The notes under the pieces: generated by a model | What the model was told of the DNA's origin: nothing | What the model saw: only the letters and a program-made list of their open reading frames with translations | Database searches by the model: none | Position numbers and translations under genes: made by a program | In this document: positions 14,389-59,511 of the stretch, one piece after another | Numbering within the stretch: position 1 is the first letter of the stretch | How the letters are laid out: every line of letters starts with the position of its first letter | NCBI GenBank assembly: GCA_008632985.1 | Contig: QPGO01000019.1 | Location: 372,001 to 436,000, forward strand | Source: Psammoneis japonica | Lineage: Eukaryota | Direction: 5' to 3' | Length of the DNA: 64,000 nucleotides

Positions 14389-14424
14389 TGCCCACATTGC
14401 AGGCCAGCTCCCATCCGGAATGCT

Positions 14425-33059: not shown

Positions 33060-33677
33060 CCAGAATAAGAGGATCTGATACCCATGCTGAGTGTCGACAC
33101 GTAATTTTTAAAAAAAAAATTTGAAAGTTTCTTGAGCTGTAGAAGAAGCTATCTGAGCTGCACCATTTGCGAGCATTCAGGATAAGCAAACCTATACGCC
33201 ATTGCACACGTTGGAATCAAATCCTGTTTTGGACTAGCTTGAAGCTACGTGGCTTGCACAGCTACTCACACGCGGCAAGGATTATGTCGTTGCTAGTATC
33301 AAACAGAAATTCCCTATCAAAGTCACTCTGTCAACACGAAGAGATCACTCACACTTGCCGTCCCTTTATTGCTAGAAGTAGTACGTTGTTTTACAATACA
33401 CAAGATATTGTGCATGTGTGAAGGCTTTCTTTGTTTATCTACTCTGCACGTAAGCATCCTCCCGCTCTGGGAAGAGTAATAGGGTACCACCCAGTCACAC
33501 ATCAAGTCTTCTCTGCATGCATTCTCCCGATTGCAGCTCCCATTCGTACTTGACATAACAGCACGAACCGCAATTGCTGTATATTACAAGCTCTACACTA
33601 TCCCTCACGGCAAGAGCTGTCACAGCGCTCTTTGTAACCAACAGCCTCAGACCGCGCCACAAGAAGTTGGCACCAGC

Positions 33678-34200
33678 TTACATTCGTTTTGGGCGGCGTT
33701 TCGCTTTTAAATGAGAGGTTCCGTAGAAGGCGTGACATCTGTCAAGGTTCCAGGGCTGTGGCAATCGTACAATCTGAGGAGGATCGCGTTTCATTTGAAG
33801 CAAGGCCCAGTACACCCCCTGGTCGCCATGAGGGGATTGCAAGATGCCATCTCCTGGATGTCCCCATGGTGAACGAGCGTGTCCTTTATTTGCCTCTTGT
33901 TGAGTTGCAAGCGCCGTCATGAACTGGGCTGGGTAAGGGTCGTTCTTTTGCAGTTCAGCCAAGTTTAATACTACAATGCAACTGCACATATTCCCAGATG
34001 CATTTAGCTCCTGTCCTTCATTATGAAGAGGCATTCGATAGAGCCATTTATCTTGCTTTGAGGGCAGCTGAGGGATTAAGCCCGCCGGATCCGTCATGAA
34101 GATCATGTCAGTGTCAACGACCACCACCGGTTCGTCTCTCCCAGAAAACAAAGGCAATCGGTGAACGAAAAGCTAACGGATATGATGCCACATGCACCAC
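33678..34200 (-). pseudogene. GT8-family glycosyltransferase fragment (disrupted, or an exon of a spliced gene)
   Basis: VVVDTDMIF (DxD), CSCIVVLNL, HGDQGVY and LPQPWN. An in-frame TAG lies just upstream (R*LFVHRLPLF). Confidence 0.55.
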
Positions 34201-34666
34201 CAAAGACACAGAGAACCCCATCAAATGGTTATCATAACAAGCCACAGCCCTCTTCAACCTCTGACAAGACAACGACCTGCAAAAGTTTTTACTCATCTTT
34301 CACTTAGAAAGTACCAGCAATGGAATGCCACTCATCCACTCGATTGAACGAACACTCGACACAGACTGACACAACCTCTCCCGACCACATTGATTACAGT
34401 GAGCTGCCTACCCTCACCAATGTGAGCTACCACCAACAGGTCGACCCGAAACTAAACTTCCTCCTGAACGCGGTACACAGAGACCACCTAGAACCCCATC
34501 ACTCCGAAAGTGACACCAGGCTCTCGTGCTACAACTCCAGCAATTCTTCGCCCTAAAGTTCTGCCTTATAGATGCCTCTGTTTTACAATCCTTTCCGGTT
34601 CAGGGATTCCAACCCTCAAGCCCTTCGACGTTGTTTCGATTTGGATGTCTCTTCCTCATTGTCCTT

Positions 34667-36868
34667 CTAGTCCTCGTTCTCGCGCAGCGGATTCCATCCC
34701 TCAAGCCTTTCGACTTTCATAAAACGAGTGTCCGCGTCAAACTGCCAACCAACATGCTTCCCACTATATTGTGCCCAAATATCATCTTCCCCTTCATCAT
34801 CGGCTCCTCTAAATCCAAAACGATTTTTATGTTTGAGCGGTGCGTGATCGTCGTACATGTCAAACTCGTCATCATAGGAACCATATATGTCGCTATATCC
34901 GCCCCCAAAGCGGTCCCAATCGTCGGCATCCATATCGTCATCACCCCAGCCGTACTCATCGTCTTCATCGAACTCAACACTGGAATCTTCAACAACTTTG
35001 GCATCCGAGCCTTTGCTTCTGCTTTCGCCGGCGTCCTTGCCAGCCGGTGAAGCTTCAATGTACTTGCCCCATTCCATGGGGAGAGCCAAGGTAGGATGAT
35101 GGGAAACACGAACTCCGGAGTTGGGTGCATATGCCCTTATCAAGGTGGTGCGAGGCACAAGCAGTCCCAGCCAACCGAAATTGGCAATGGCAAGATCCAT
35201 TCCAACATTTCTTTCAAAAACGACCTCATGAACAGGTGTCAATTTAGCCAAAATACGGAGACGTTTTTGGTTTTCTGCTTCCCTCTTCCTTTTCTTTTCT
35301 TGTCGACGCCATTCGTCATGACCTAGTTCTTTCTTTCCTCTGGCGACTTTTTCTTCATATTCTCGCTTTCTTTCTTCCCTGGTCAAGTGTGCTCGCTCTT
35401 GCACGCGTTTGCTATCTTCTTCTTTTCGTTTATTGTCCTCTTGTTCCTGCTTTTCCCAGCGCTTTTGTTCGTCCTCATGGGCCACAGGAATATCAATAAT
35501 TTTCGTTTCCAGATTCAGCGTAGAGTTCCAAACCAAACGCACCGGACCCAAGCCCTTGGTATCCTTCTTTAAGCGCACTTCAATGCGTATCAAGGGCAAA
35601 TCGTCTCCTTTTTCACAAATCACGAGGCAAAAGCCCTTTTTGTCCGTCTCATGAATCTGGGGTTCAATCTGAGAGGGTCGTTGGACCCGAATGGCTCTGA
35701 GATTTCGAATCGGAAAGTGTGCCGTACTCTCGTCCAACAAGAGTCCTGGAGTGTCCCACAAGGCTTGATTGTGATCTTCAAAGCAAGGTACTCGTACATT
35801 TTGCAAGGTAGTACCCGGTAAACTTGATTTGGTAATGCGTGATTCGCGAATCTTTTCTAAACGTCTCTTGCCCATGCGGTCGCCGAAATGTCCAGCCTTC
35901 ATGCCCCGCGAGGCAAGTTTGGTAATCAAAATATCGGTCAGAGTGCTCTTGCCAATATTGGCCGCTCCAATAATGTAGGGATCTCGTCCCTTCAAGTGTT
36001 GCCACAAATCATCGGTCAATTCGTTCAAACCGCCCGTCTTGTCGCGGTAGTCCGCTTCTTCGGAACACAAGTACACTTCGGCTGGAATGATATCCGACGC
36101 CAATCGCCGAAAGGTGGTTTTGAGTGTATCCATCTCGGCATGTCGTTCCCACACGTAGGGAGGCAGCAAGTCACATCGTGTCACGGCCAAGAGAATGGGA
36201 TTGCCTCCCACATAGTTGCGAATGGTTTTGATGAGACTGCCACTGATATTGACGGCATCGACACACAAGACCACCACGGCTTTTTCCTTGGTACGAATTT
36301 TGGACACTTCTTCCCGAAAGACTTGGGTCATTTTGGAATCCGGAGCCAACCCTTCGAGGGCTTGCAAGTCGATTTTGCCCTTTTTGGCTTGTTTTTGCAA
36401 CGTTTTGCAGCGTGGACAAAGGGCCCAATTTTTGATTTTGGCCTTGTGCAATTCTTGATTCTTGGTCGCCCAAAAACCCTTGCGTTTTTCGACGGTTTGC
36501 ATTTGTCCCCGTTGTTTACCGGTGACCAAGTCGGCGCCACAGCCGTAGCAATAGCCTGTACCGGAGCCTCGTTTGCCCACCACGGCAATGCCACTGCCTC
36601 GTTCTTTCGTTCGTTCTCGTGGGTGGGCAGCGAAACATCGGGTCAACGAGTGGTGGATGGATATGGGTGTCATGTGTCTTTGCTGTTGTGGGAAAGAACC
36701 GCTCTTCACACCAAAACCCATGCTACACGTTGATAAGGGCTGGCATGATGATGGATGGAGGGTTTGTGATGGGGGGCGTCGGACAAAGTTTTGGTAATTC
36801 CGGACACTGCTTCGCGTCGAACAGTGGCGCGAGACGAGACAAGGAAAAGACTTATGTATGTGAAACAT
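34667..36868 (-). CDS. NOA1: NOA1/YqeH-family circularly permuted GTPase with a probable organellar transit peptide
   Basis: CxxC...CxxC zinc motif (CYGCG, CPRC), then G4-like TRCD, G1 GAANIGKST, G2 PGTT and G3 DTPG in permuted order. R/S-rich N-terminus. Confidence 0.88.
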   Translation of the reverse strand: MFHIHKSFPCLVSRHCSTRSSVRNYQNFVRRPPSQTLHPSSCQPLSTCSMGFGVKSGSFPQQQRHMTPISIHHSLTRCFAAHPRERTKERGSGIAVVGKRGSGTGYCYGCGADLVTGKQRGQMQTVEKRKGFWATKNQELHKAKIKNWALCPRCKTLQKQAKKGKIDLQALEGLAPDSKMTQVFREEVSKIRTKEKAVVVLCVDAVNISGSLIKTIRNYVGGNPILLAVTRCDLLPPYVWERHAEMDTLKTTFRRLASDIIPAEVYLCSEEADYRDKTGGLNELTDDLWQHLKGRDPYIIGAANIGKSTLTDILITKLASRGMKAGHFGDRMGKRRLEKIRESRITKSSLPGTTLQNVRVPCFEDHNQALWDTPGLLLDESTAHFPIRNLRAIRVQRPSQIEPQIHETDKKGFCLVICEKGDDLPLIRIEVRLKKDTKGLGPVRLVWNSTLNLETKIIDIPVAHEDEQKRWEKQEQEDNKRKEEDSKRVQERAHLTREERKREYEEKVARGKKELGHDEWRRQEKKRKREAENQKRLRILAKLTPVHEVVFERNVGMDLAIANFGWLGLLVPRTTLIRAYAPNSGVRVSHHPTLALPMEWGKYIEASPAGKDAGESRSKGSDAKVVEDSSVEFDEDDEYGWGDDDMDADDWDRFGGGYSDIYGSYDDEFDMYDDHAPLKHKNRFGFRGADDEGEDDIWAQYSGKHVGWQFDADTRFMKVERLEGWNPLRENED

Positions 36869-37347
36869 TCCTCATCTGCGTAGCACCAACAGATCAATGT
36901 CCTTCGTAAGCGATAGAGAGAGTCCTTAACAAGGAAGTAAGTTTGCCACGTAAGATCGTCGGATGAAGAAGATCTTGTTGTCAGAGATGGAAATGATGCA
37001 GAGATACACGTGTACCATCAGCGCAACGATTTCAATCGCGGTTGGGTGCGTCTGATGACGAGTATGGCTCCAACTTCCGAACGATTTTGCGGGGGGGGGG
37101 CGCTGTTTTTACTTAAGGCCCCCCCACGAAATTCAACCTCATTTAAGCACCTGTGACATCCCCCCCCCTCATACAAAAAATCCGTAGAAGTGACAGTCGT
37201 CGTCGCGCGCCATCTTTTTGGCCTTTTTCTGGAACGCTTTTCATAACAACGACCCTCATCGTTGTTGCAAGTGCGTGCTTCATACTTCATTGACACCTTT
37301 CCTTTTCAACAAGGGTTTGTCAAGAGCCCCTTTGTGTTCTCATTGCC

Positions 37348-40300
37348 ATGCCCACACTTGAAACAATGGGGCCGAAAAGCCAGTCAAGTCCTTCGCGTCT
37401 GAAGAAGTTGAAGCAAAATGCATCGAGGCCGACGCCCCACCCCTTGAACAAGTGCACGAAAGAGGGTGAAGCGGAGCGACGTAGAAAGCAAAAGGAAATT
37501 GACGAAGCTAACAAATTCAAATGGAGGTGCGATCAGTGCAAGAAAAGCAAGAAGATTCGTGAAAAAGTCACAACTCGGGTTGACTTCGGAACGAAAACGT
37601 GCAAACGGTGTGTCGCAGGGCCGGGTTGCAAGAAGGGTCACGACGACATGTGCCATGAGAATCCAAATGCTTCAAATTACAAGCCACCAGAGAAAATTGT
37701 TGCTCAAGTTCTGAAAGAGGCAGAGCCAGATTTCCTCATGGCACTGCCACAAGATTGCAGAAACAATCTCATCGCGAGGAGCCTTTTGGAAAGATCTTTT
37801 TTCTCTTCGCCGGAGGGAAGTGCAGAAAGTGCACAAGAAGCATTTTTCGATGTGTCTGAGTCCTTGGCAGATTCTAATCCACCCAGTGACAACAACAATT
37901 CAGCTGGGGATGCTCTCAGCAGCGTTGAATCCAAGGATGCATTGAAGCCGTTGCTGTGCAAGAAAATGACTGCGTCGCATCTAAAAAAAGCGACACCCGC
38001 CGTGATGTCGACGTGGAGCACAAGCAAGAAAGAGCAACTCGCTCAAGACAACATAAAAGTGCCGCTTCCAATTTTGGCATTGCTGGAATTCATTCACATG
38101 CAATGCCCAAGAGTTTGCACCGACTCCAATGGCGCCAAGAAGCTTGGTGGAGGTGAACAACGCATTTCTTGGTGCCGCGACCACTTTCCGCGTGGAAATG
38201 TTGCGTTCACGGCACCGTTGGCGGGTAGGAAAGAAAATGAAGTTCCCGACCCAACGCATGAGTCCATTCAAGGCTCAACAACATGTTTGACTCGGTGGGA
38301 ACTGAACATGCCAGACTTGCCATTGAAGTGTTTTTCATGCAGCGACGGATTTCTGGAGCACACGAGGGTGGAGTGCGGCGGCACCAGGTTTGCAAGCAGC
38401 GCGACGCCCGTTTTCAGAACAAAAGGTCACATGGGTTGGGAGCACGGCATCACATGCAAGTGCTCCAATTGTGGAGAGCTTGTCAAGTCGTGTGATGGTA
38501 GACTGCTGCGTTGTTCTCTACAAGACTGCGCACGTCGAAGCTTCCCAGTAGATCCCTTGTGTTGCTCGAAGCCATCCTTCTTCTTGCTTCACGAAGAGGT
38601 GTCCTTTCTGCTGGAGGAGGCTGCTCTAACAGAATCAAGTGCACAGTGGGTGTCACGAACGCTCTTCCGAAGTCAAAACCATCGGCACGAAGAACTGGAA
38701 CTGTCACATTGCAGCTCTGACAAGAGTTGCGAGGACAAACCTTTTCCAGACTTTCCATCAATTGAAGAGTGGCGAGGACAGTGTCCGCCATCAAGTGCTC
38801 AGTTGCCAGATCTTTGCAAAGCAGCCAACTCCTCCGATCTCACCGCGTGTGGCGTGAGCGACGACGACCGTCACAAGAGAGAAATGCAGTCATGCGGCTG
38901 CGAAACTTCTACAGCCTTCGATCATACCCACGCAATGTTGAGCAACTACCCATCATCACTGGGCGCTCAAGCTTGTGCCACTCAGTCAACTGATGCGGGA
39001 TTCATTGCCTGGCTTGGACTTGTCGACTCTACCGCAATGTCAGACAGTGCCCACCACATCGAGCAAACTGCAAGACGGCCAAACTTTAACCCGAAGCATG
39101 TGCACACGGATGCATGGCCCAATCTTGATCCATTCTTCAAGATGACACACGGATTTGCAACAATCGGTCGACTTGGCTCATTCCATGCAATTCAGCGCGT
39201 CACCAAGTTCATGCGGAAAGATCACAAGGATTTCAACAAAGCTCTCTGCTCTTTCTTGAGCTGCCTGCACAGTCTGAACCAAGAGGATGAAGCAACCGTA
39301 GTGGCAACACTGCGAGACGGGACAATGAATGGCCGCATCCACCAGCCTGATGAGATCTCGGATTTGCAGCACAGCAAGAAGTGGATGGACCGCTGTGGGC
39401 AGTGCATCCGAAAGATTCCTGTTCCAGGAGAGCTCGCGAGGATTAAGTTGAGGGACTGGTGGTGCCCACACAAAGTGAGCAACAGTGATGGTGAGCCAGC
39501 AGGACAAGGAGAGCTGGACAATGGAAAAACCCTGTTCATGGAAGGAGCGAGACAAGCAGTGAGAGCGTTGACGGAAAAAGCTCAGCATCTGCCAGAGATT
39601 GTTGGCGACTGCCACAAGAAACTCACCGCATTTGCCCGATCGAAACACAAACTACCGCGACACATTTCTGAAAAGGGTGAGTCTTCATTGGAGAAGTTTC
39701 ACCATCTGCTAGCTCATTTTGGAAACATGGGCATGCGGCGAACGCTCGCCGACAGTTTGAACCTCCGCGGCACGTGTCGATGCAATCTCAAGCTGTGGCA
39801 CAAACTGTTCGGAAGAAATGCACCCGAGATCCCAAGCCATTTTCAAACTGAACCCATTCATCACAACCATCTCAAGTTGCTAGAGATCAACCGGAGGTCC
39901 GCCAAGCATGGATCCAAAGCACCGCGGCATGAGAATCTACGAGATTGCCCGGAGTGCAGGGGCGAAGAGTTTTTGTCCGAGCACCTTTTGTCGCAAAGAA
40001 AGAGACGAGCACAACATCCACCCCATCCAACCAACAGTCGCTGCCAATGCCCCAAATGTGCTGCAAATCCGATGCCTCTTCCTCACATCCAACGAGCCAT
40101 TTCACGTGAGCAGTCGGCGGCATCTGCAGTGGCGCCAAATGAAACGGCACCTGTGAACAATGACACTGGTGACTTTGACGCTGCTGAGTTTGGTGTCGAC
40201 TTTGATGAGCAAGAGTGTCATTCTGTGTTTGAAGACACTCCTCCTCAAGAGCAACTTCCCCAAGAAACACGAATGATCCGCGACTTCGCCGTGCAGGACG

Positions 40301-40668
40301 CCTTCCAAAGGCATCAAGAATTGAATTCCGCACCGCCTGCCCCAATCCTCCCCATGCCGGCACCAGCTCTGCCATTGCTGCCTCTGCTGCCTGTTCCTGT
40401 AACAAATTTGCCAATGTCATTGCAGCAACCTTTGGGCCCACCCACTGTTGCGTCGTCGATGCCACATTCAACCTGCTGCCAACCCGTTTCTCTTGGGACA
40501 GCGAGTTTTGCAGCATCTGCTCCTGTGCTGCCATCCGCTGTCACTCCAGCTACAAAGAGACGAAAGGTCAAAGAAGAAGAACACTGCTGTGAGGGAAGAA
40601 AAAATCATGTCGAAAATGGTCGTCGGGGGCGGGTCGCTCATGCCTTGTGGTGCAACCGAGGAAAGTAA
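37348..40668 (+). pseudogene. Putative DDE transposase (unit 1); frame open but Tyr codons almost all mutated
   Basis: Motifs FDHTH, HTDAWP, RLGSFHAIQR and KGESSLEKFH suggest D-D-(xxH)-E order (Dada/MULE-like, tentative). I find only two Tyr in 1106 aa. Confidence 0.6.
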
Positions 40669-40939
40669 GGCGTTCTTGGTGTCTTTTTGTTTTGTTCTTT
40701 TTTCCATTTGTGTTGGTGCACATCACATTGCCACTTCCCAGCATAGATGCATTAATTCAGGATTGGGATCCAACACAGTGGCAACAAACATTTTACACTT
40801 GTACAATTACACCGGTCCACCACACCAACCATCACCGCGCCGCACCGACCAACACCAACGGCACGGACAGCACGGACACCAAGGTCCCATAAAGCCGGTA
40901 GCCTGTCGCAGCCCCACAGCAGAAACAAAGGAACAGAAA

Positions 40940-41400
40940 CAACAAAATTGAGAACACGACAACAAAGAAACAGACCCATGACACTCGACACATTTCTGTT
41001 GCCTCACATCAATGCTTTTGGAGTGCCCTCGTGGTGCTTGTGGTTGATTGCACTAAGCAACACTGTCGGCCGAAAACAAAACAAAACACTGTCCAATTAA
41101 AAGGAACAGAAACAACAGAAATGTAGAAGGTGCCATCAAAGAAACAACCCCATCATGCTCGACACATTCATGTCACCTTGTCTTAATGATTTCGGTGCAT
41201 CCTCACAGTCCTTGTGGTTCATTGTCAGCAGCAATCTTGTCGGCGGCAGAAAACAAAACTCAAAACACACGCTCCATTTAAACACAATGGAAACAAAAGA
41301 AATTTAGGAGACACCAACAAAAAAATACAACCATCACACTCAACACAGTCTTTGCACCTTACATCAATGCTGTTGACCCTCGCATCGTCACAGTGATGGT
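40940..41400. repeat. Diverged ~180-bp subterminal repeats (about 2.5 copies, present in each array unit)
   Basis: Recurring ccatca..ctcRacaca...Yaatg...ttgtggtt.attg...tgtcggc..aaaacaaaac blocks. Confidence 0.6.
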
Positions 41401-41939
41401 CGATTCATGAACGGAGCCAGTCGCCATTGTGCTGCGAAGGTTCGAGGGTGGTGCGGTAAGTGCGCGTGAGGATTTTTCCTGCTGCATGCAGTGTCTTTTC
41501 TGTCTGTCCGTTAGCGAGTGGTCTTAAACGTTGCTGAGTCATAAATGGCTTGAAGACAAAATTGTTCTTAAATGTTGCATCGTCACAATTGGGGATTGCT
41601 GAGTCATAATTCACTGAAGGCATGATGTGATTGGCTGAAAATACAGCGCACAAGAATGGGACAACGGAAAGAGATTTTGCGGGGGGGGGGCGCTGTTTTT
41701 ACTTAAGGCCCCCCCCACGAAATTCAACCTCATTTGAGCACCTGTGACATCCCCCCCCCCTCATGCAAAAAATCCGTAGAAGTGACAGTCGTCATCGCGC
41801 GCCATCTTTTTGGCCTTTTTCTGGAACGCTTTTCATGACAACGACCCTCATCGTTGTTGCAAGTGCGCACTTCATGCTTCATTGACACCTTTCCTTTTCA
41901 ACAAGGGTTTGTCAAGAGCCCCTTTGTGTTCTCATTGCC

Positions 41940-44900
41940 ATGCCCACACTTGAAACAATGGGGCCGAAAAGCCAGTCAAGTCCTTCGCGTCTGAAGAAGT
42001 TGAAGCAAAATGCATCGAGGCCGACGCCCCACCCCTTGAACAAGTGCACGAAAGAGGGTGAAGCGGAGCGACGTAGAAAGCAAAAGGAAATTGACGAAGC
42101 TAACAAATCCAAATGGAGGTGCGATCAGTGCAAGAAAAGCAAGAAGATTCGTGAAAAAGTCACAACTCGGGTTGACTTCGGAACGAAAACGTGCAAACGG
42201 TGTGTCACAGGGCCGGGTTGCAAGAAGGGTCACGACGACACGTGCCATGAGAATCCAAATGCTTCAAATTACAAGCCACCAGAGAAAATTGTTGCTCAAG
42301 TTCTGAAAGAGGCAGAGCCAGATTTCCTCATGGCACTGCCACAAGATTGCAGAAACAATCTCATCGCGAGGAGCCTTTTGGAAAGATCTTTTTTCTCTTC
42401 GCCGGAAGGAAGTGCAGAAAGTGCACAAGAAGCATTTTTCGATGTGTCTGAGTCCTTGGCAGATTCTAATCCACCCAGTGACAACAACAATTCAGTTGGG
42501 GATGCTCTCAGCAGCGTTGAATCCAAGGATGCATTGAAGCCGTTGCTGTGCAAGAAAATGACTGCGTCGCATCTAAAAAAAGCGACACCCGCCGTGATGT
42601 CGACGTGGAGCACAAGCAAGAAAGAGCAACTCGCTCAAGACAACATAAAAGTGCCGCTTCCAATTTTGGCATTGCTGGAATTCATTCACATGCAATGCCC
42701 AAGAGTTTGCACCGACTCCAATGGCGCCAAGAAGCTTGGTGGAGGTGAACAACGCATTTCTTGGTGCCGCGACCACTTTCCGCGTGGAAATGTTGCGTTC
42801 ACGGCACCGTTGGCGGGTGGGAAAGAAAATGAAGTTCCCGACCCAACGCATGAGTCCATTCAAGGCTCAACAACATGTTTGACTCGGTGGGAACTGAACA
42901 TGCCAGACTTGCCATTGAAGTGTTTTTCATGCAGCGACGGATTTCTGGAGCACACGAGGGTAGAGTGCGGCGGCACCAGGTTTGCAAGCAGTGCGACGCC
43001 CGTTTTCAGAACAAAAGGTCACACGGGTTGGGAGCACGGCATCACATGCAAGTGCTCTAATTGTGGAGAGCTTGTCAAGTCGTGTGATGGTAGACTGCTG
43101 CGTTGTTCTCCACAAGACTGCGCACGTCGAAGCTTCCCAGCAGATCCCTTGTGTTGCTCGAAGCCATCCTTCTTCTTGCTTCACGAAGAGGTGTCCTTTC
43201 TGCTGGAGGAGGCTGCTCTAACAGAATCAAGTGCACAGTGGGTGTCACGAATGCTCTTCTGAAGTCAAAACCATCGGCACGAAGAACTGGAACTGTCACA
43301 TTGCAGCTCTGACAAGAGTTGCGAGGACAAACCTTTTCCAGACTTTCCATCAATTGAAGAGTGGCGAGGACAGTGTCCGCCATCAAGTGCTCAGTTGCTG
43401 GATCTTTCGATCTCACTGCGTGTGGCGTGAGCGACGACGACCGTCACAAGAGAGAAATGCAGTCATGCGGCTGCGAAACTTCTGCAGCCTTCGATCACAC
43501 CCACGCAATGTTGAGCAACTACCCATCATCACTGGGCGCTCAAGCTTGTGCCACTCAGTCAACTGATGCGGGACTCATTGCCTGGCTTGGACTTGTCGAC
43601 TCTACCGCAATGTCAGACAGTGCCCACGGCATCGAGCAAACTGCAAGACGGCCAAACTTTAACCCGAAGCATGTGCACACGGATGCATGGCCCAATCTTG
43701 ATCCATTCTTCAAGATGACACACGGATTTGCAACAATCGGTCGACTTGGCTCATTCCATGCAATTCAGCGCATCACCAAGTTCATGCAGAAAGATCACAA
43801 GGATTTCAACAAAGCTCTCCGCTCTTTCTTGAGCTGCCTGTGCAGTCTGAACCAAGAGGATGAAGCAGCCGTAGTGGCAACACTGCGAGACGGGACAATG
43901 AATGGCCGCATCCACCAGCCTGATGAGATCTCGGATTTGCAGCACAGCAAGAAGTGGATGGACCGCTGTGGGCAGTGCATCCGAAAGATTCCTGTTCCAG
44001 GAGAGCTTGCGAGGATTAAGTTGAGGGACTGGTGGTGCCCACACAAAGTGAGCAACAGTGATGGTGAGCCAGCAGGACAAGGAGAGCTGGACAATGGAAA
44101 AACCCTGTTCATGGAAGGAGCGAGACAAGCAGTGAGAGCGTTGACAGAAAAAGCTCAGCATCTGCCAGAGGTTGTTGGCGACTGCTGCAAGAAACTCACC
44201 GCATCTGCCCGATCGAAACACAAACTACCACGACACATTTCTGAAAAGGGCGAGTCTTCATTGGAGAAGTTTCACCATCTGCTGGCTCATTTTGGAAACA
44301 TGGGCATGTGGCGAACGCTCGCCGACAGTTTGAACCTCCGCGGCACGTGTCGATGCAATCTCAAGCTGTGGCACAAACCATTCGGAAGAAATGCACCCGA
44401 GATCCCAAGCCATTTTCAAACTGAACCCATTCATTACAACCATCTCAAGTTGCTAGAGATCAACCGGAGGTCCGCCAAGCATGGATCCAAAGCACCGCGG
44501 CATGAGAATCTACGAGATTGCCTGGAGTGCAGGGGCGAAGAGTTTTTGTCCGAGCACCTTTTGTCGCAAAGAAAGAGACGAGCACAACATCCACCCCATC
44601 CAACCAACAGTCGCTGCCAATGCCCCAAATGTGCTGCAAATCCGATGCCTCTTCCTCACATCCAACGAGCCATTTCACGTGAGCAGTCGGCGGCATCTGC
44701 AGTGGCGCCAAATGAAACGGCACCTGTGAACAATGACACTGGTGACTTTGACGCTGCTGAGTTTGGTGTCGACTTTGATGAGCAAGAGTGTCATTCTGTG
44801 TTTGAAGACACTCCTCCTCAAGAGCAACTTCCCCAAGAAACACGAATGATCCGTGACTTCGCCGCACAGGACGCCTTCCAAAGGCACCAAGAATTGAACT

Positions 44901-45241
44901 CCGTGCCGCCTGCCCCAATCCTCCCCATGCCGGCACCAGCTCTGCCATTGCTGCCTCTGCTGCCTGTTCCTGCAACAAATTTGCCAATGTCATTGCAGCA
45001 ACCTTTGGGCCCACCCACTGTTGCGTCATCGATGCCATGTTCAACCTGCTGCCAACCCGTTTCTCTTGGGACAGCGAGTTTTGCAGCATCTGCTCCTGTG
45101 CTGCCATCCGCTGTCACTCCAGCTACAAAGAGACGAAAGGTCAAAGAAGAAGAACACTGCTGTGAGGGAAGAAAAAATCATGTCGAAAATGGTCGTCGGG
45201 GGCGGGTCGCTCATGCCTTGTGGTGCAACCGAGGAAAGTAA
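41940..45241 (+). pseudogene. Putative transposase (unit 2), disrupted
   Basis: CGA->TGA at 43260-43262 and a 19-bp deletion near 43407 relative to unit 1. Confidence 0.7.
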
Positions 45242-46510
45242 GGCGTTCTTGGCATCTTTTTGTTTTGTTCTTTTTTCCATTTGTGTTGGTGCACATCACA
45301 TTGCCACTTCCCAGCGCAGATGCATTAATTCAGGATTAGGATCCAACACAGTGGCAACAAACATTTTACACTTGTGCAATTACACCGGTCCACCACACCA
45401 ACCATTGCCGCACCGTACCGACCAACATTAACGGCACGGACAGCACGGACACCGAGGTCCCATAAAGCCGGCAGCCTGTCGCAGCCCCACAGCAGAAACA
45501 AAGGAACAGAAACAACAAAATTGAGAACACGACAACAAAGAAACAGACCCATGACACTCGACACATTTCTGTCACCTTATGTCAATGCTTTTGGAGTGCC
45601 CTCGTGGTGCTTGTGGTTGATTGCATTTAAGCAACACTGTCGGCCGAAAACAAAACAAAACACTGTCCAATTAAAAGGAATGGAAACAACAGAAATGTAG
45701 AAGGTGCCATCAAAGAAACAACCCCATCATACTCGACATATTCATATTACCTTGTCTTAATGATTTCGGTGCGTCCTCACAGTCCTTGTGGTTCATTGTT
45801 AGCAGCAATCTTGTCGGCGGCAGAAAACAAAACTCAAAACACACGCTCCATTTAAACACAATGGAAACAAAAGAAATTTAGGAGACACCAACAAAAAATA
45901 CAACCATCATACTCAACACAGTCTTTATACCTTATGTCAATGCTGTTAACCCTCGTATCGTCACAGTGATGGTCGATTCATGAACGGAGCTAGTCGCCAT
46001 TGTGCTGCGACGGTTCGAGGGTGGTACGGTAAGTGCGCGTGAGGATTTTTCCTACTGCATGCAGTGTCTTTTCTGTCTGTCCGTTAGCGAGTGGTCTTAA
46101 ACGTTGCTGAGTCATAAATGGCTTGAAGACAAAATTATTCTTAAATGTTGCATCGTCATAATTGGGGATTGCTGAGTCATAATTCACTGAAGGCATGATG
46201 TGATTGGCTGAAAATACAGCGTACAAGAATGGGACAACGGAAAGAGATTTTGCGGGGGGGGGGCGCTGTTTTTACTTAAGGCCCCCCCACGAAATTCAAC
46301 CTCATTTAAGCACCTGTGACATCCCCCCCCCTCACACAAAAAATCCGTAGAAGTGACAGTCGTCGTCGCGCGCCATCTTTTTGGCCTTTTTCTGGAACGC
46401 TTTTCATGACAACGACCCTCATCGTTGTTGCAAGTGCGTGCTTCATACTTCATTGACACCTTTCCTTTTCAACAAGGGTTTGTCAAGAGCCCCTTTGTGC
46501 TCTCATTGCC

Positions 46511-49500
46511 ACGCCCACACTTGAAACAATGGGGCCGAAAAGCCAGTCAAGTCCTTCGCGTCTGAAGAAGTTGAAGCAAAATGCATCGAGGCCGACGCCC
46601 CACCCCTTGAACAAGTGCACGAAAGAGGGTGAAGCGGAGCGACGTAGAAAGCAAAAGGAAATTGACGAAGCTAACAAATTCAAATGGAGGTGCGATCAGT
46701 GCAAGAAAAGCAAGAAGATTCGTGAAAAAGTCACAACTCGGGTTGACTTCGGAACGAAAACATGCAAACGGTGTGTCACAGGGCCGGGTTGCAAGAAGGG
46801 TCACGACGACACGTGCCATGAGAATCCAAATGCTTCAAATTACAAGCCACCAGAGAAAATTGTTGCTCAAGTTCTGAAAGAGGCAGAGCCAGATTTCCTC
46901 ATGGCACTGCCACAAGATTGCACAAACAATCTCATCGCGAGGAGCCTTTTGGAAAGATCTTTTTTCTCTTCGCCGGAGGGAAGTGCAGAAAGTGCACAAG
47001 AAGCATTTTTCGATGTGTCTGAGTCCTTGGCAGATTCCAATCCACCCAGTGACAACAACAATTCAGCTGGGGATGCTCTCAGCAGCGTTGAATCCAAGGA
47101 TGCATTGAAGCCGTTGCTGTGCAAGAAAATGACTGCGTCGCATCTAAAAAAAGCGACACCCGCCGTGATGTCGACGTGGAGCACAAGCAAGAAAGAGCAA
47201 CTCGCTCAAGACAACATAAAAGTGCCGCCTCCAATTTTGGCATTGCAGGAATTCATTCACATGCAATGCCCAAGAGTTTGCACCGACTCCAATGGCGCCA
47301 AGAAGCTTGGTGGAGGTGAACAACGCATTTCTTGGTGCCGCGACCACTTTCCGTGTGGAAATGTTGCGTTCACGGCACCGTTGGCGGGTGGGAAAGAAAA
47401 TGAAGTTCCCGACCCAACGCATGAGTCCATTCAAGGCTCAACAACATGTTTGACTCGGTGGGAACTGAACATGCCAGACTTGCCATTGAAGTGTTTTTCA
47501 TGCAGCGACGGATTTCTGGAGCACACGAGGGTAGAGTGCGGCGGCACCAGGTTTGCAAGCAGCGCGATGCCCGTTTTCAGAACAAAAGGTCACATGGGTT
47601 GGGAGCACGGCATCACATGCAAGTGCTCCAATTGTGGAGAGCTTGTCAAGTCGTGTGATGGTGGACTGCTGCGTTGTTCTCTACAAGACTGCACACGTCG
47701 AAGCTTCCCAGTAGATCCCTTGTGTTGCTCGAAGCCATCCTTCTTCTTGCTTCACGAAGAGGTGTCCTTTCTGCTGGAGGAGGCTGCTCTGACAGAATCA
47801 AGTGCACAGTGGGTGTCACGAACGCTCTTCTGAAGTCAAAACCATTGGCACGAAGAACTGGAACTGTCACATTGCAGCTCTGACAAGAGTTGCGAGGACA
47901 AACCTTTTCCAGACTTTCCATCAATTGAAGAGTGGCGAGGACAGTGTCTGCCATCAAGTGCTCAGTTGCCAGATCTTTGCAAAGCAGCCAACTCCTCCGA
48001 TCTCACCGCGTGTGGCGTGAGCGACGACGACCGTCACAAGAGAGAAATGCAGTCATGCGGCTGCGAAACTTCTACAGCCTTCGATCATGCCCATGCAATG
48101 TTGAGCAACTACCCATCATCACTGGGCGCTCAAGCTTGTGCCACTCAGTCAACTGATGCGGGATTCATTGCCTGGCTTGGACTTGTCGACTCTGCCGCAA
48201 TGTCAGACAGTGCCCACCACATCGAGCAAACTGCAAGACGGCCAAACTTTAACCCGAAGCATGTGCACACGGATGCATGGCCCAATCTTGATCCATTCTT
48301 CAAGATGACACACGGATTTGCAACAATCGGTCGACTTGGCTCATTCCATGCAATTCAGCACGTCACCAAGTTCATGCGGAAAGATCACAAGGATTTCAAC
48401 AAAGCTCTCTGCTCTTTCTTGAGCTGCCTGTACAGTCTGAACCAAGAGGATGAAGCAGCCGCAGTGGCAACACTGCGAGACGGGACAATGAATGGCCGCA
48501 TCCACCAGCCTGATGAGATCTCGGATTTGCAGCACAGCAAGAAGTGGATGGACCGCTGTGGGCAGTGCATCCGAAAGATTCCTGTTCCAGGAGAGCTCGC
48601 GAGGATTAAGTTGAGGGACTGGTGGTGCCCACACAAAGTGAGCAACAGTGATGGTGAGCCAGCAGGACAAGGAGAGCTGGACAATGGAAAAACCCTGTTC
48701 ATGGAAGGAGCGAGACAAGCAGTGAGAGCATTGACGGAAAAAGCTCAGCATCTGCCAGAGATTGTTGGCGACTGCTGCAAGAAACTCACCGCATCTGCCC
48801 GATCGAAACACAAACTACCGCGACACATTTCTGAAAAGGGCGAGTCTTCATTGGAGAAGTTTCACCATCTGCTGGCTCATTTTGGAAACATGGGCATGTG
48901 GCGAACGCTCGCCGACAGTTTGAACCTCCGCGGCACGTCTCGATGCAATCTCAAGCTGTGGCACAAACCATTCGGAAGAAATGCACCCGAGATCCCAAGC
49001 CATTTTCAAACTGAACCCATTCATTGCAACCATCTCAAGTTGCTAGAGATCAACCGGAGGTCCGCCAAGCATGGATCCAAAGCACCGCGGCATGAGAATC
49101 TACGAGATTGCCCGGAGTGCAGGGGCGAAGAGTTTTTGTCCGAGCACCTTTTGTCGCAAAGAAAGAGATGAGCACAACATCCACCCCATCCAACCAACAG
49201 TCGCTGCCAATGCCCCAAATGTGCTGCAAATCCGATGCCTCTTCCTCACATCCAACGAGCCATTTCACGTGAGCAGTCGGCGGCATCTGCAGTGGCGCCA
49301 AATGAAACGGCACCTGTGAACAATGACCTGGTGACTTTGACGCTGCTGAGTTTGGTGTTGACTTTGATGAGCAAGAGTGTCATTCTGTGTTTGAAGACAC
49401 TCCTCCTCAAGAGCAACTTCCCCAAGAAACACGAATGATCCGCGACTTCGCCACACAGGACGCCTTCCAAAGGCACCAAGAATTGAATTCCGTGCCGCCT

Positions 49501-49830
49501 GCCCCAATCCTCCCCATGCCGGCACCAGCTCTGCCATTGCTGCCTCTGCTGCCTGTTCCTGCAACAAATTTGCCAATGTCATTGCAGCAACCTTTGGGCC
49601 CACCCACTGTTGCGTCGTCGATGCCATGTTCAACCTGCTGCCAACCCGTTTCTCTTGGGACAGCGAGTTTTGCAGCATCTGCTCCTGTGCTGCCATCCGC
49701 TGTCACTCCAGCTACAAAGAGACGAAAGGTCAAAGAAGAAGAACACTGCTGTGAGGGAAGAAAAAATCATGTCGAAAATGGTCGTCGGGGGCGGGTCACT
49801 CATGCCTTGTGGTGCAACCGAGGAAAGCAA
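46511..49830 (+). pseudogene. Putative transposase (unit 3), disrupted
   Basis: TGA at 47831 (shared with unit 2), TGA at 49169, a 1-bp deletion near 49327, and terminal TAA->CAA at 49828. Confidence 0.7.
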
Positions 49831-50898
49831 GGCGTTCTTGGCATCTTTTTGTTTTGTTCTTTTTTCCATTTGTGTTGGTGCACATCACATTGCCACTTCC
49901 CAGCGTGGATGCATTAATTCAGGATTAGGATCCAACACAGTGGCAACAAACATTTTACACTTGTACAATTACACCGGTCCACCACACCAACCATTGCCGC
50001 ACCGCACCGACCAACATTGACGGCACGGACAGCACGGACACCGAGGTCCCATAAAGCCGGCAGCCTGTCGCAGCCCTGCAGCAGAAACAAAGGAACAGAA
50101 ACAACAAAATTGAGAACACGACAACAAAGAAACAGACCCATGACACTCGACACATTTCTGTTGCCTTACATCAATGCTTTTGGAGTGCCCTCGTGGTGCT
50201 TGTGGTTGATTGCATTGAGCAACACTGTCGGCCGAAAACAAAACAAAACACTGTCCAATTAAAAGGAATGGAAACAACAGAAATGTAGAAGGTGCCATCA
50301 AAGAAACAACCCCATCATACTCGACACATTCATATTACCTTGTCTTAATGATTTCGGTGCGTCCTCACAGTCCTTATGGTTCATTGTTAGCAGCAATCTT
50401 GTCGGCGGCAGAAAACAAAACTCAAAACACACGCTCCATTTAAACACAATGGAAACAAAAGAAATTTAGGAGACACCAACAAAAAAATACAACCATCATA
50501 CTCAACACAGTCTTTATACCTTATATCAATGCTGTCAACCCTCGTATCGTCACAGTGATGGTCGATTCATGAACGGAGCTAGTCGCCATTGTGCTGCGAC
50601 GGTTCGAGGGTGGTACGGTAAGTGCGCGTGAGGATTTTTCCTACTGCATGCAGTGTCTTTTCTGTCTGTCCGTTAGCGAGTGGTCTTAAACGTTGCTGAG
50701 TCATAAATGGCTTGAAGACAAAATTATTCTTAAATGTTGCATCGTCATAATTGGGGATTGCTGAGTCATAATTCACTGAAGGCATGATGTGATTGGCTGA
50801 AAATACAGCGTACAAGAATGGGACAACGGAAAGACCTCAAACATAAAGTTTATTAAAGACTAAATAACATATAAATTTGGGTGTTCGCAAAGATTTGA

Positions 50899-52110
50899 CT
50901 AGTTGGACTGCTCAGTTTTTGGTTGTCTCGGCGAAACATCGTTCCGCTGCGACCTGCTCAACAACGACGTCTCAGTAGCTCGACAAATCATCAAAAACGA
51001 ATCAAGCACACTAAGACGCGTCAAATGGTGGTAATTTGTTGAGCCACTGAACCGAATTGACGAAGAAATGACGATTTGCAGTGACGCCTTCATGTCTTCG
51101 TCGACACGACAAATGATGATGCCATGCACGATCGATGGAAGGCAGATGGAACATTGGCTCCGACATGTTCAACTTCACGGTTGACTTGATGACTCTCTAT
51201 CATCATGCAAGGTGGGAACTTTTTGCAGTGCGATGTCTCAAAACATGAACTTTGCTGCGTGCCCTCACTCAATTTGTGCACGTTGAGTGAAGAGCAAATT
51301 GACATTTGGGCCAATGGCATGGCCCCCATTGACAAGGTTCTCCTGAACGTGCCACCAAGAAGTGCACCTCTTCCGGGGCAGCTGAAGCAGGTGGCAATGA
51401 GGAGTGAGAAATGAAGTTTTTGCTGGTTTTGCTGGTTGCGACTGCAGTGAGTTTTGTCTGTGGAATGTTGGCATTGTTTGCATTGCTGCAGTTTGGTTTG
51501 TCTGGTTAAAGAACCATCTGAGGGTGGGCAAACAAACAGAGTTCATGGTTGCATCTTGCTTGATGCAGTGCTGTAAGGTTCCAAATGACATTGGAAGCAT
51601 CAGAGCAAACTGCATCATCAAAAGCAAAGTCATGGGCCGCTCGTCACTTGGTGCAGTCGTAGTTCGAGAATGCTGTTCACCACCACATGCCACACTCGGT
51701 TTGTCACAAGCAATTCATGCTGGATGGATTTGATCTGTGCCACATGCTCAATGACAAGACTAGCTGCTCAAGCTTGATGAGAAGAAGCATTTCAAGTTCA
51801 GAGTTGATCTTGAGCTCCATGCCCAAGGGCTCCAACCAGGAGATTTGCTGCTGTGTTAAAAACCATTCTCCTGAAACAATGCGAGGAATTAAAAGGAACG
51901 AGTGTCAGCAGCAGGATTGGCATCAATGCAAAAAGTTCTTTGAAAAAATTTCATCCTCTGTGTCCACTGACATTCAATGTGCAGTGCTGAACAATGCACA
52001 ATCCTCTTCTGCCTGCACTTGCCTTGTTGCTGCCGTGTTGTCGATGGTGGCGATTTAGTCTCTTGGTGATTGTGCCCGTTGCTCATCATCTTCTCCTCAT
52101 GTCGTTGCAT
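50899..52110 (-). pseudogene. Degraded host-type gene, possibly SGNH/PC-esterase-like
   Basis: Frame fragments NSSHCFRRMVFNTAANLLVG, DASNVIWN..LHQ and terminal NYHHLTRLSVLDSFLMIC. Frameshifted, and TpA-depleted except at its 3' end. Confidence 0.3.
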
Positions 52111-52441
52111 TGAGCATTGTTGGGTTGATTGATGAGTGATGACAGCACGAGAGTGAAGCCGACATTTTAGTTGGCAGAAAATTTACATTGAACATTCATT
52201 TTGAATGCACTCTCATGATGGGGTCTTTCAGCACAAAGTTGGAGCCAAGGGATTGTACACTAAAGTCTGGGAGCACAGCAAACGGAAGACAAACAGAACG
52301 CCAGTGCATTTTCTGTGCACTGTGACTTCCGGGTTCTTGCCGACTGTCGTGTGGAGTGCAAGTCACGATTGGTGAGTCGTGGGCAAAAATGTCTGAAATC
52401 TGTCCTTTTGAGAACGAAACAACACGGTGAAGCACGGGGCA

Positions 52442-52604
52442 CCATGGCACTCTTTGGATGCCATCATCTCAAAATCTAATGGGGCACACGACTGTGTCTT
52501 GAGCGCAACTCAGCTTTGTAGATAAAATTGTGCCCATGTGGCCATGCGACGCTTTCACGCACCCCATTAGATTTTGAGATCATGGCGTCCAAAGAGCGCC
52601 ATGG
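52442..52604. repeat. 43-bp inverted repeat with 77-bp spacer
   Basis: ccatggcactctttggatgccatcatctcaaaatctaatgggg / ccccattagattttgagatcatggcgtccaaagagcgccatgg; 3 mismatches. Confidence 0.88.
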
Positions 52605-53298
52605 CGTGAAGTGATTTTGATGTTTTCTGGCTCAGCAGAGATTTCCTTGTAGAAATCCAGTGCAATCACACGCAGAAATTCAAAAATCTCTCGGGTGCAC
52701 ATCACAAACTGTTGCTTTTCAACAACATTGCTGTTCATCAACGTTTGGGGTGTTGAATGATGGGAGATGGGAGCGAAAGGTCCAGTGCTCATGGATGACA
52801 CTTCCTCAAGTGGACAAATGAAAAGCTGTTGGTTTGAACGTCCTTTACATGCGATTGTCATTTTTTACAACATTGTCAAGACTGTTCTTTCTCTGAATGT
52901 CACAGCAGCAAGCACACCAACACATGTGCACACACTTGGAGACAAATGGGATGCTTCACCCCCACTCAGCCAAGTTGAGCTTGGAAGCTCCCTTTTTGTT
53001 GCCAGACATGAACCTTCTTCTTCAACAACCTTGCTTGCATGCTGTCGAACTGCAATGTGCAGCACCCACTGGTTCAGTGTCATCATCATCGATGCATCGC
53101 GACCCCTTGCACAAAACACATCTTGCAATGACAAGGTGGACGCGCTGCGCCCGCGTTGTCAGGAGCAAGTGCTGCTCCGATTGACGCATCATTTGCTCAT
53201 TTCAACCACAGTGAAGTTCAACATTCTTGAGCACTTCTAAACAAACTTGACGGATTGCCATCCACGAGTCGAATGGGTTGAGCAACACTGGCACGAAC

Positions 53299-53694
53299 GA
53301 CGCGTTCCAGACGCAGGTGGGAATCCGTGTGACATTGGGCCCGCAGACTTCTACGTGTGAGTTCCGCAGTAAAATCATGCGGTGATTAAAGTGTCAATGA
53401 TCGCCAACAGAAAATGAGGCAATTTTGCGAACGCACAAACTCGCCCATGATTGAAGCACATCATTTTTTACTTGGCCAGTTGCACTCTTCAGACATTGAA
53501 GAATGCAACTGGCACATTGTTGTTTCTATAAATTTGTCACATAAAACGTCTGGGGCTTCGCAAAACAGCGAGTCTGGACAATTTTTTTTAAATGTCACAC
53601 GTAGAAATCTACATGCGAAACATGCGACGGATGACAAAAATCATTTGTGTCACACGTCAGTGCTGCAAGCTCCCACCCAGGGCTGGAATGCGTC
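53299..53694 (+). mobile_element. ~395-bp MITE, copy B (TSD gaac), nested in the MULE-like element
   Basis: gaac|gacgcgttccagacgcaggtggga ... tcccacccagggctggaatgcgtc|gaac. Confidence 0.85.
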
Positions 53695-54172
53695 GAACGA
53701 ACAAATGTCCAAGACTCATTTGTCCAGCACCATGCTTCGTGGTGTGTCTGTTGCCTTGACCTTCAAACAACCTCTGCCGCATGGAGGACAGCTGAGGATC
53801 ACGGGCGGTGATCTTGCACAGTGCGTTGCTTGTACAAACTTGTCAATGGCACATTCCTTTCCTCCGGCATGCATCAAAAGAAAGACTGATCCAGCTTCCA
53901 ACACCGTCCGTGATGCCAGAAGTGACGTGTGATTTTGAATCGCACAATGGCCACAGCAGCAGAGCAACAACAACGACACGAGCAACAACGGTGCAGACAC
54001 CACACCGGCTTTGTGTCAGTGTGTGTGAAGCTTCACAAGAGTTTTGCGTGTGTGGTGACCACGCAAGATGATGCGAACACAGAATTCCACACGACGATTG
54101 GCGGTCTGTCCAACTGTGCATTGCTCCCAGACTTTAGTGTGCAATCCCTTGTTGGAGCCACAGAGTGCTGCA

Positions 54173-54563
54173 GACGGGCTCCAGTCCCAGGTGGGACTTT
54201 TTGTGACATTTGGCCCGTAGAATTCTACGTGCGAGGTCCGCATTACAAGAATTTAATCAATGGATGTTCATGTCTTCAACATCAAACAAACGACCAAGTT
54301 TGTGGTGCAATTGCGACCATTGCCGCTTGACGTTTTCGGCAATCTGCCTGCCCTGCGCTTATTCTTGGGACATTTGCAAATGGCATAGAAGAAAAAAATG
54401 TCAAAAGTTGTTGGACGGATCGCTCAACAAGTGCACCACAAAATGACACAAAATTTCAGAAAAGTCACGTACCTTTCTACGTGCGCGACACACGGTGCGA
54501 TCCAAAAAACTGTCGACATCACAATTCAGCAGTGCGAGGTCCCACCCAGAGCTGGAACGTGTC
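54173..54563 (+). mobile_element. ~395-bp MITE, copy C (TSD tgca)
   Basis: tgca|gacgggctccagtcccaggtgggac ... gtcccacccagagctggaacgtgtc|tgca. Confidence 0.85.
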
Positions 54564-55168
54564 TGCACTGGAAGTTGCCGCAAACACGGGGAAAGTGTGT
54601 CAGATGTTGCCTGGCATGCCATCACGCGTCTCATGTGACATGGATCAAACAACATGCGCAGGACATTTAAATCGCAGAATCTTTCCGTTGAGAAAAGTCA
54701 AATTTCCTTTTCCAGCTGCATGCGCGCATGTTCACATGAACAATTCTTCAATGCCAATCGCACTCAAATCTTCAAATTTAGAGATGATTGATGAGTGGAC
54801 CCCGCAGTCGAATTCTCCATGCCCGAAAACATGGGAACCGACACTTCATCTGCTGAAAAAGTCCCGCTGGTTGTTCTGGTGGCATCTAAAATGTGCTTGC
54901 ATTTTCGCGCAATTTTTCACCGATTTCTCCCTCCACCATGGCGGACCCTGTGGCTGCCCCCACCGGGGAAGGACATTCACTCCAGCAACCTTGGACGCCT
55001 GACAACATTGTCAGGGAAATGCCAGATGTGTCAGAATTGCTTGGAGCGGGAACAGACATGTGTTTTGCCTGTTGAAGACATGCCGCGAAACCCGGCACCA
55101 CAGTCTGCTCCCGAAGCACCCTCTGTTCCAGTGCTTCCCCCTTCCCAAGTCTTCCTGAGCAGCCACCA

Positions 55169-55354
55169 GTGGCCAGAGAGCTTGAATGTGACTCAGCTTG
55201 TCCTGCAAGGCATCACAACAAAGACAAGCCTGAAAAATTCCGAGCGGACTTTGTCGTGATGGCGGATGCCCTTCAGCATTTTGTGCTCCATCTTGATGCA
55301 TGCCAAGGGAAGAACCAAAACAACAGCTGCATCAATGAGAGGAACAACCATTAG
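55169..55354 (+). pseudogene. piggyBac (DDE_Tnp_1_7-like) transposase remnant
   Basis: CPARHHNKDKPEKFRADF...FVLHLDACQGKN matches the PxRxYxxxKPxK...xYxGK segment with Y->H/C changes. Confidence 0.65.
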
Positions 55355-55432
55355 AAAGAAATTTCTGCAGCAATCTTGCATCTGTTTCATTGGACAGCAA
55401 AATAAAAACCATTGGAACAGTTGAGGAACGAC

Positions 55433-59500: not shown

Positions 59501-59511
59501 AGCTCCCCACC

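Follow-up and report, generated by a model that had tools for sequence, protein, structure and literature searches.

A 64,000-nucleotide stretch of the genome of the diatom Psammoneis japonica (GenBank assembly GCA_008632985.1, contig QPGO01000019.1, positions 372,001 to 436,000 of the forward strand; hereafter "the window") contains, at positions 37083-50834, an array of three head-to-tail units of about 4.58 kb, each with a 3.3-kb reading frame of a transposase-like family. The units are 97.8, 98.0 and 98.3% identical in pairwise comparisons, and the differences between them are mostly transitions at pyrimidine-purine (YpR) steps. We consider it probable that the array sits within a compartment of largely repeat- or transposon-derived, non-genic and CpG-depleted DNA that undergoes two processes. 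One would be the ordinary decay of CpG to TpG and CpA, and the other an A:T to G:C change at TpA only, in which TpA becomes TpG on one strand or, equivalently, CpA on the other. Jointly, the two would push every YpR step towards TG or CA. In coding sequences the TpA process would convert tyrosine codons into histidine or cysteine codons and erase TAA and TAG stops, so that proteins would be ruined by missense changes while long frames stay open.

Differences among the units of the tandem array

The three units were aligned with each other and YpR steps were scored as four states (CG, TG, CA and TA). These and all other spectra and profiles cover the 64-kb window, the copies compared being those within it. 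Substitutions were found in 137 columns, comprising 132 transitions and five transversions. As many as 118 of the 132 transitions fall in YpR steps, where 47% of the invariant positions lie (Fisher p = 4e-24), and 14 fall outside them. YpR sites that are identical in all three copies are CA in 431 cases, TG in 343, CG in 195 and TA in 33. The 47 variable sites at which TA occurs comprise 16 with TA in two copies and TG in the third, 14 with TA in two copies and CA in the third, four with TA in one copy and TG in two, five with TA in one copy and CA in two, and eight at which the three copies read TA, TG and CA. CG is present at 37 variable sites, in two copies at 30 of them and in one copy at seven, and 13 sites show a double difference between CA and TG. 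Among the three units there were neither CG/TG/CA triples nor sites that combined CG with TA.

Of all dinucleotides TA is the least stable. At 30 of the 63 sites with a TA majority one copy has another state, compared with 31 of 226 for CG and a fraction of 0.012-0.084 for each of the other fourteen dinucleotides. Deviation is thus concentrated at TA, other A:T contexts being low, and its products are strand-symmetric, with 32 TG and 32 CA over the three units. This supports the strand-symmetric A:T to G:C transition at TpA that had been put forward in an initial annotation of this DNA, made from the letters alone. No strand-coordinated runs of events were observed; TG and CA products are interleaved, and runs tests were not significant. 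The base on the 3' side of the changed A is more often a pyrimidine (TAY 33, TAR 21) in these events than in unchanged orientations (TAY 39, TAR 65; p = 0.007).

The individual sites from which the initial annotation had argued are all present. One of them reads TA at 37172, TG at 41764 and CA at 46335; codon 641 (39268, 43841 and 48431) is CAC in unit 1, TGC in unit 2 and TAC in unit 3; codon 839 (39862, 44435 and 49025) is CAC, TAC and TGC in units 1-3, respectively; and the stop codon is TAA at 40666 in unit 1 and at 45239 in unit 2 and CAA at 49828 in unit 3, where the start codon position holds ACG. What had been overlooked is the decay of CpG to TpG and CpA, which makes up 37 of the 118 YpR transition columns. 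This decay, attributable to 5-methylcytosine (5mC), acts here as a second process at the 37 CG-type sites and has the same TG and CA products, but TpA cannot be lost through it, and per site it runs here at about one tenth of the TpA rate; the two are indeed distinct, as had been claimed.

Terminal inverted repeats of the array element were looked for and none were found. Directly 3' of the last unit lies a short TA-rich island (50835-50880). We also note that the loss of TA is uneven among adjacent copies, units 2 and 3 having retained at their 3' ends many TA that are gone from unit 1.

Direction of change and the lost tyrosines

The direction from TA to TG or CA is well supported in the array. 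Tyrosine columns of the encoded protein, polarised codons, a likelihood comparison, an internal control and the composition of relatives all agree in making TA the ancestral state, as initially proposed. For the likelihood comparison, we fitted a four-state chain (CG, TG, CA and TA) to a star tree, leaving the root frequencies free. The full model (log likelihood, lnL, -1833.1) gave a rate of 0.246 for TA loss, 0.001 for TA gain, 0.026 for CG loss and 0.003 for CG gain. Models without TA loss reached lnL values of -1995.8 and -2014.6, i.e. 163-181 log units worse, and forbidding TA gain carried no likelihood cost. As estimated under this model, the per-site rate of the TpA process is about 10 times that of CpG decay. 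Compared with other substitutions, the TpA process is about 100 times faster.

The decay of CpG can serve as an internal control; its derived state is confined to one copy at 30 sites and shared by two copies at seven. If TA is taken as ancestral the corresponding ratio is 30:9, which matches the control (p = 0.78), while if TA is taken as derived it is 9:30 (p = 4e-7). Since the direction is known for CpG decay, the TA-derived polarity is rejected.

The relatives of the encoded protein provide an outgroup. A full HMMER search with the 1106-residue open reading frame (ORF) of unit 1 yielded 802 relatives, of which 182 reached E <= 1e-30, and members of the family are about 1000 residues long. 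A word-index protein search with the same ORF (P0001, 37348-40665) gave no match; as the full HMMER search found 802 relatives, this blank reflects a failure of sensitivity. The tyrosine to histidine or cysteine changes, together with the related missense load, have probably erased the shared five-residue words and thereby blinded the word search. Tyrosine makes up 0.18% of the ORF (two of 1106 residues), against a median of 3.59% among the 150 relatives listed of the 802, none of which is below 1%. Cysteine (4.6 vs 2.6% in the listed relatives) and histidine (4.7 vs 3.4%) account for the shortfall, bearing out the initial description of the frame as poor in tyrosine and rich in cysteine and histidine. 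In an alignment with 100 relatives, we defined tyrosine-consensus columns as those with tyrosine in at least half of at least 30 sequences. At the 18 such columns the ORF has histidine in eight, cysteine in five, phenylalanine in two, and glutamate, leucine and tyrosine in one each, and it retains all 14 cysteine-consensus columns. A similar picture emerges from the closest relative among the matches listed (P0122, 46% identity over 793 aligned residues), where 24 aligned tyrosines correspond in the ORF to 10 histidines, six cysteines, four phenylalanines, one tyrosine and three other residues.

Individual codons can be polarised by the same family. Codon 641 encodes tyrosine in 90 of 96 relatives, so TAC, which only unit 3 keeps, is ancestral. 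Codon 756 (39613..39615, + strand) is CAC in unit 1 and TGC in units 2 and 3; since 91 of 93 relatives have tyrosine there, this CA/TG double difference derives from TA and not from CG. When varying codons are polarised by the family, codons 385, 391, 401, 527, 562, 641 and 756 have TA as the ancestral state and none has it as the derived one, while codons 480, 617, 623, 797 and 868 go back to CG. Codon 57 shows an off-context change, TTC to TCC. As an outgroup for composition we used 80 related metagenome loci, whose TA observed/expected ratio (obs/exp) is 0.58 at the median and 0.30 at the lowest, compared with 0.21 in the array.

As to the identity of the family, no Pfam model was above threshold for the ORF or for 49 of its relatives, and a profile search of the PDB with the ORF family found nothing at E values up to 1. 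DUF6729 is found below threshold in four of the 49 relatives, and sub-threshold CxC5 also occurs among relatives; an Atlas lead for the ORF points to DUF6729 and Mutator-like clusters (score 0.91). With regard to a possible acidic catalytic triad of the DDE type (Mutator-like, KDZ or DUF6729), residues D525, D588, E778 and E782 do not vary among the 50 family sequences compared. A transposase-like label seems reasonable, with no named superfamily assigned.

One may also consider the opposite polarity, in which a C to T mutator resembling fungal repeat-induced point mutation (RIP) would have turned CpA into TpA alongside CpG decay, TA being derived and TG and CA ancestral. Diatoms are reported to have DNMT4 enzymes related to fungal RID, with a function that is not known (PMC9998398), and in the 3' kilobase TA is common to units 2 and 3 at sites that read CA or TG in unit 1, which, judged from the three copies only, might be one event on a shared branch. 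On the other hand, the tyrosine codons that have become histidine or cysteine are precisely those conserved in the family, the relatives elsewhere are richer in TA, and there are eight TA/TG/CA triples as opposed to no CG/TG/CA triple. The likelihood deficit and the ratio of singletons to doubletons given above conflict with such a process as well, and so do the indices commonly used for RIP: TpA/ApT is 0.24, (CpA+TpG)/(ApC+GpT) is 1.54 and the composite index is -1.29, with a GC content, 0.50, that equals that of the flanks. A RIP-like origin of TA in the array is refuted by the outgroup tyrosines, the likelihood and the internal control, and we regard such a mutator as hardly credible here; there appears to be no sign of a cytosine-based process behind the TA loss. 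As in RIP, context-specific transitions amass in repeated or selfish DNA, wreck genes and show in dinucleotide indices. However, RIP turns CpA into TpA and reduces GC content, whereas here TpA is destroyed and GC content is unchanged, stop codons are erased rather than created, and strand-coordinated runs are absent. The initial separation of this pattern from fungal RIP is therefore upheld, by the negative index and by the reversed direction.

TA-depleted compartments across the window

The loss of TA extends well beyond the array. We computed obs/exp profiles in 500-bp bins (128 bins over the window) and found TA below 0.2 in 83 bins and at or above 0.35 in 28, a bimodal distribution with sharp borders. 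CpG is low in the depleted bins (obs/exp 0.04-0.8), TA and CG obs/exp are correlated across the 128 bins (Spearman 0.72), and the excess of TG plus CA equals the deficit of TA plus CG. The array, at 0.21, is less depleted than older compartments (0.04-0.09), and in gene-like stretches overall TA is about 0.4-0.8 and CG about 1. All named sequences among the 120 best matches to the UAA-family transporter of one such stretch (Table 1) come from diatoms, with identities of up to about 50%, as expected for a diatom or near relative that lacks closely related sequenced species. In the most extreme compartment (Table 1) nearly all YpR steps are TG or CA, apparently the end state of both processes. 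A microsatellite origin of the TG/CA excess could be ruled out, the depleted DNA, 3001-6000 included, being complex sequence.

Table 1. Positions of the array, of compartments and of other features within the window.
Feature	Position	Strand	Remarks
Most extreme TA-depleted compartment	3001..6000	.	TA 0.00-0.10, CG 0.04-0.19, TG/CA 1.85-2.22 obs/exp
UAA-family transporter gene	6286-7662		Gene-like stretch
TA-depleted compartment, 16.5 kb	8001..24500	.	TA 0.00-0.17, CG 0.24-0.82 obs/exp; many overlapping long ORFs on both strands
TA-depleted compartment	27501..31000	.	TA obs/exp 0.03-0.15
Gene-like compartment beside the array	31501..36900	.	TA obs/exp 0.26-0.77, CG about 1; single-copy by contig depth
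GTPase-domain ORF	34667-36868	-	In the gene-like compartment
Tandem unit 1	37083..41674	+	4592 nt; the only unit with an intact ORF; 3' kilobase stripped of many TA kept in units 2 and 3
ORF of 1106 aa, transposase-like family	37348..40668	+	HMMER relatives; no Pfam model
Tandem unit 2	41675..46245	+	4571 nt; ORF broken by a 19-nt deletion and CGA to TGA at codon 441
Tandem unit 3	46246..50834	+	4589 nt; ORF broken by a 1-nt deletion and CGA to TGA at codons 441 and 887
TA-depleted compartment on the 3' side of the array	51001..64000	.	TA obs/exp mostly 0.00-0.32; holds 183-nt tandem repeats
183-nt tandem repeats	55434-55797		86% matches; copies differ by 21 transitions (20 in YpR) and 2 transversions
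183-nt tandem repeats	61700-62408		81% matches; copies differ mainly by YpR transitions

Older repeat pairs within the window show the same YpR exchanges, with 73 CA/TG double differences and with TA as the least conserved step. Repeats as such, which the initial annotation had taken to be the target, are only a possible target; the same depletion extends over most of the non-genic DNA, including stretches that have no second copy in the window. With respect to duplication, the trigger in RIP, the array has about four to five copies by depth, and depleted DNA that lacks a second copy in the window is equally affected.

Selection or biased gene conversion against TpA, instead of a mutation bias, might be invoked, as a mild shortage of TpA is common in eukaryotes and the gene-like stretches of the window are themselves at about 0.5. 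Yet tyrosines conserved in the family have been removed from the protein and the effect is equal in non-coding DNA, and depletion to 0.04 would demand selection at each single site. GC-biased conversion would moreover counter the concurrent change of CG to TG and CA, and it lacks specificity for TpA. In our view there is next to no chance that such forces, rather than mutation, explain the pattern.

The window has 122 ORFs of at least 120 residues, and 8001-24500 and 51001-64000 are rich in long stop-to-stop frames on both strands. Long overlapping ORFs are abundant because the process erases TAA and TAG and makes stops almost only through CGA to TGA. In 95 ORFs taken from the window outside the array, no Pfam domain reached the threshold. 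This constitutes a hazard for annotation, since the erasure of TAA, TAG and tyrosine codons yields long, homologue-poor frames, rich in cysteine and histidine and present on both strands, that are likely to be miscalled as orphan genes. One 454-residue open frame in TA-depleted DNA (10851-12212, - strand) has sub-threshold similarity to PhyH (E 3e-4) and 2OG-FeII_Oxy_3 (E 6e-3), and may be a degraded 2OG-Fe(II) oxygenase gene.

An alternative source of A to G changes is the A-to-I editing of double-stranded transcripts by enzymes of the ADAR or ADAT kind, followed by reverse transcription and reintegration. The T on the 5' side of the changed A would fit the preference described for RNA-editing deaminases. 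Against this scenario, the differences arose where the tandem units lie, the non-coding 3' kilobase included, and compartments without ORFs are affected as well; the products are strand-symmetric and interleaved, the 3' neighbour is a pyrimidine and not G, and no reverse transcriptase domains were found in the 95 ORFs scanned. We therefore consider RNA editing very unlikely as the origin of the pattern.

The TA steps that remain give some indication of what the putative mutator acts upon. In the 66 depleted bins outside 37001-51000 there are 174 residual TA in 33 kb, 48 of which belong to TTAA, and TTAA obs/exp is 0.32 in depleted bins compared with 0.35 in gene-like DNA. ATAT is absent from the depleted bins, and ATAC, GTAT and GTAC are nearly absent. 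This suggests a substrate rule in which T-A-pyrimidine would be preferred and TTAA would be refractory.

A pattern of this kind might in principle originate in sequencing or assembly, if a modified base in heterochromatin were miscalled and true TA and CG were written as TG or CA at random in each copy. Miscalls on two strands would yield TA/TG/CA scatter among otherwise identical copies, and would strike both palindromic steps, CG and TA. We examined short-read-type k-mer contigs of one public sample, whose best run (X1) contains 74% of sampled 31-mers of the stretch; of the three runs listed for the sample, X3 had no contig that matched. The array is covered by 219 contigs, 156 of them at 99% identity or more, and the single-copy flank by one contig of 2968 nt with one base different. 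Contig depth is about 245-300 over the array and about 55 in single-copy DNA, a ratio that indicates four to five copies or alleles. A multi-copy contig of 928 nt was rejected as a haplotype, as it mixes the states of different units. The agreement of these contigs with array and flank argues against a basecalling artefact, and the additional variants that they contain are again YpR transitions. Furthermore, the older the DNA appears, the more TA it has lost (obs/exp 0.21 in the array, 0.04 in old DNA), and TTAA is spared. An artefact is thus, in our judgement, highly improbable.

Chemistry, target and comparison with known systems

We regard the direction of the TpA change, its restriction to TpA, its strand symmetry, the borders of the compartments and the flank preference as shown. 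We infer that the process is enzymatic, and by analogy it would most simply be adenine deamination to hypoxanthine, as proposed for the chlorarachniophyte alga Bigelowiella natans; its presumed aim would be defence, directed at silenced or foreign DNA. A preprint of 2026 reports that in mutation-accumulation lines of B. natans 230 of 231 mutations in two viral inserts, an integrated nucleocytoplasmic large DNA virus (NCLDV) and a virophage region, were A to G or T to C, all at TpA, at a rate about 1000 times that of the genome (bioRxiv 10.64898/2026.01.13.699255, Mettrop et al.). It also describes TpA-poor, CpA+TpG-rich clusters in which transposon and viral domains as well as unannotated ORFs are over-represented, and proposes an ADAT2-like deaminase, the enzyme itself not being pinned down. 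The statement in the initial annotation that no system of this kind had been described is therefore superseded. We found no report in the literature of a TpA-loss signature in diatoms.

As far as the account in that preprint goes, the two cases share transitions confined to TpA that give TpG or CpA depending on the strand, local targeting that spares adjacent genes, and a long-term TpA-poor, CpA+TpG-rich footprint. They differ in that B. natans is a rhizarian and P. japonica a stramenopile, and in that a de novo rate was measured there whereas the evidence here is comparative. The target described there is a single-copy viral insert, with a TA obs/exp of 0.45 in the NCLDV region, as opposed to a tandem transposase-like array and much non-genic DNA here, with 0.04-0.2 over 83 of 128 bins. 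CpG depletion accompanies the TA loss here, unlike in the B. natans account, and no counterpart of the flank rule (TAY favoured, TTAA spared) is seen in the main text of the preprint. On the footprint in the window, the P. japonica case is a stronger instance of a kind described once before, in B. natans. Its deeper footprint makes the present locus a source of many targets from which the enzyme and the rule that it follows might be found.

Deamination of adenine is not the only chemistry that would produce such a footprint. The T of TpA could be modified, e.g. to 5-hydroxymethyl- or 5-formyl-uracil, and mispair with G, or a T:G-mismatch glycosylase could excise T in the wrong context, in either case fixing T to C. 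As TpA is palindromic, T to C and A to G are indistinguishable from sequence, and the correlation of TA loss with CpG loss noted above connects it with the methylated compartment, in which T:G repair is most active. In E. coli, very-short-patch (VSP) repair bias depletes CTAG, changing it to CCAG or CTGG. Repair of the VSP or TDG type resembles what we observe, in that repair of 5mC damage fixes T to C in a set context and depletes a TA-containing word. However, every NTAN except TTAA is hit here, at a far higher rate, whereas the known contexts, so far as they are described, are CTAG, or TpG/CpA changing to CpG. Human TDG is reported to remove T opposite damaged adenine, thereby fixing A:T to G:C (PMC4041421). 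Changes in the TDG context, TpG/CpA to CpG, are rare here (rate 0.003, compared with 0.246 for TA loss), and a repair bias that worked solely on replication errors would probably not reach ten times the rate of CpG decay. Altogether we regard these other chemistries as unlikely.

Several points weigh against our preferred reading, that of a CpG-depleted compartment subject both to CpG decay and to an enzymatic change at TpA. The likelihood model presumes a star tree and the same rate at every site. Codon 618 runs in the opposite direction: it is ATC in unit 2, in agreement with isoleucine in 76 of 96 relatives, and GTC in units 1 and 3, which by the family majority would mean a change of CpA to CpG. 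The support from reads, a point raised by the initial annotation, comes from the contigs of one public sample, which is possibly the source of the assembly, so that it is not independent. No enzyme candidate is pointed to by the sequence of the window, and the chemistry could be deamination of A, a mispairing modified T or biased mismatch repair. Finally, what is targeted could be a chromatin state or foreignness rather than repetition.

More tentatively, and with somewhat less confidence than doubt, we suggest that diatoms may share with Bigelowiella a TpA-directed A to G editing of DNA. It would be an old defence beside cytosine methylation, common to the SAR supergroup (stramenopiles, alveolates and rhizarians), that would drive all silenced DNA to a TG/CA-only state, at about ten times the rate of CpG decay, through an enzyme reading T-A-pyrimidine but not TTAA. 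If TpA-directed hypermutation does operate in P. japonica, it is present in a second major eukaryotic lineage, which hints at a widespread mutator for defence or silencing rather than an oddity of one alga. Should the SAR-wide reading be true as well, there would be a genome-defence mutator as general as RIP and of opposite polarity, and it would account for many orphan algal ORFs that are poor in tyrosine and rich in cysteine and histidine. The TpA process as such would be predicted to strip silenced elements of TA-rich signals, e.g. TATA boxes, poly(A) signals and TA target sites.

A minor observation concerns the 80 related metagenome loci, two of which, L067 and L059, have a TA obs/exp of 0.30 and 0.39 with TG/CA at 1.5-1.6; these may be milder instances of the TpA process in other organisms.

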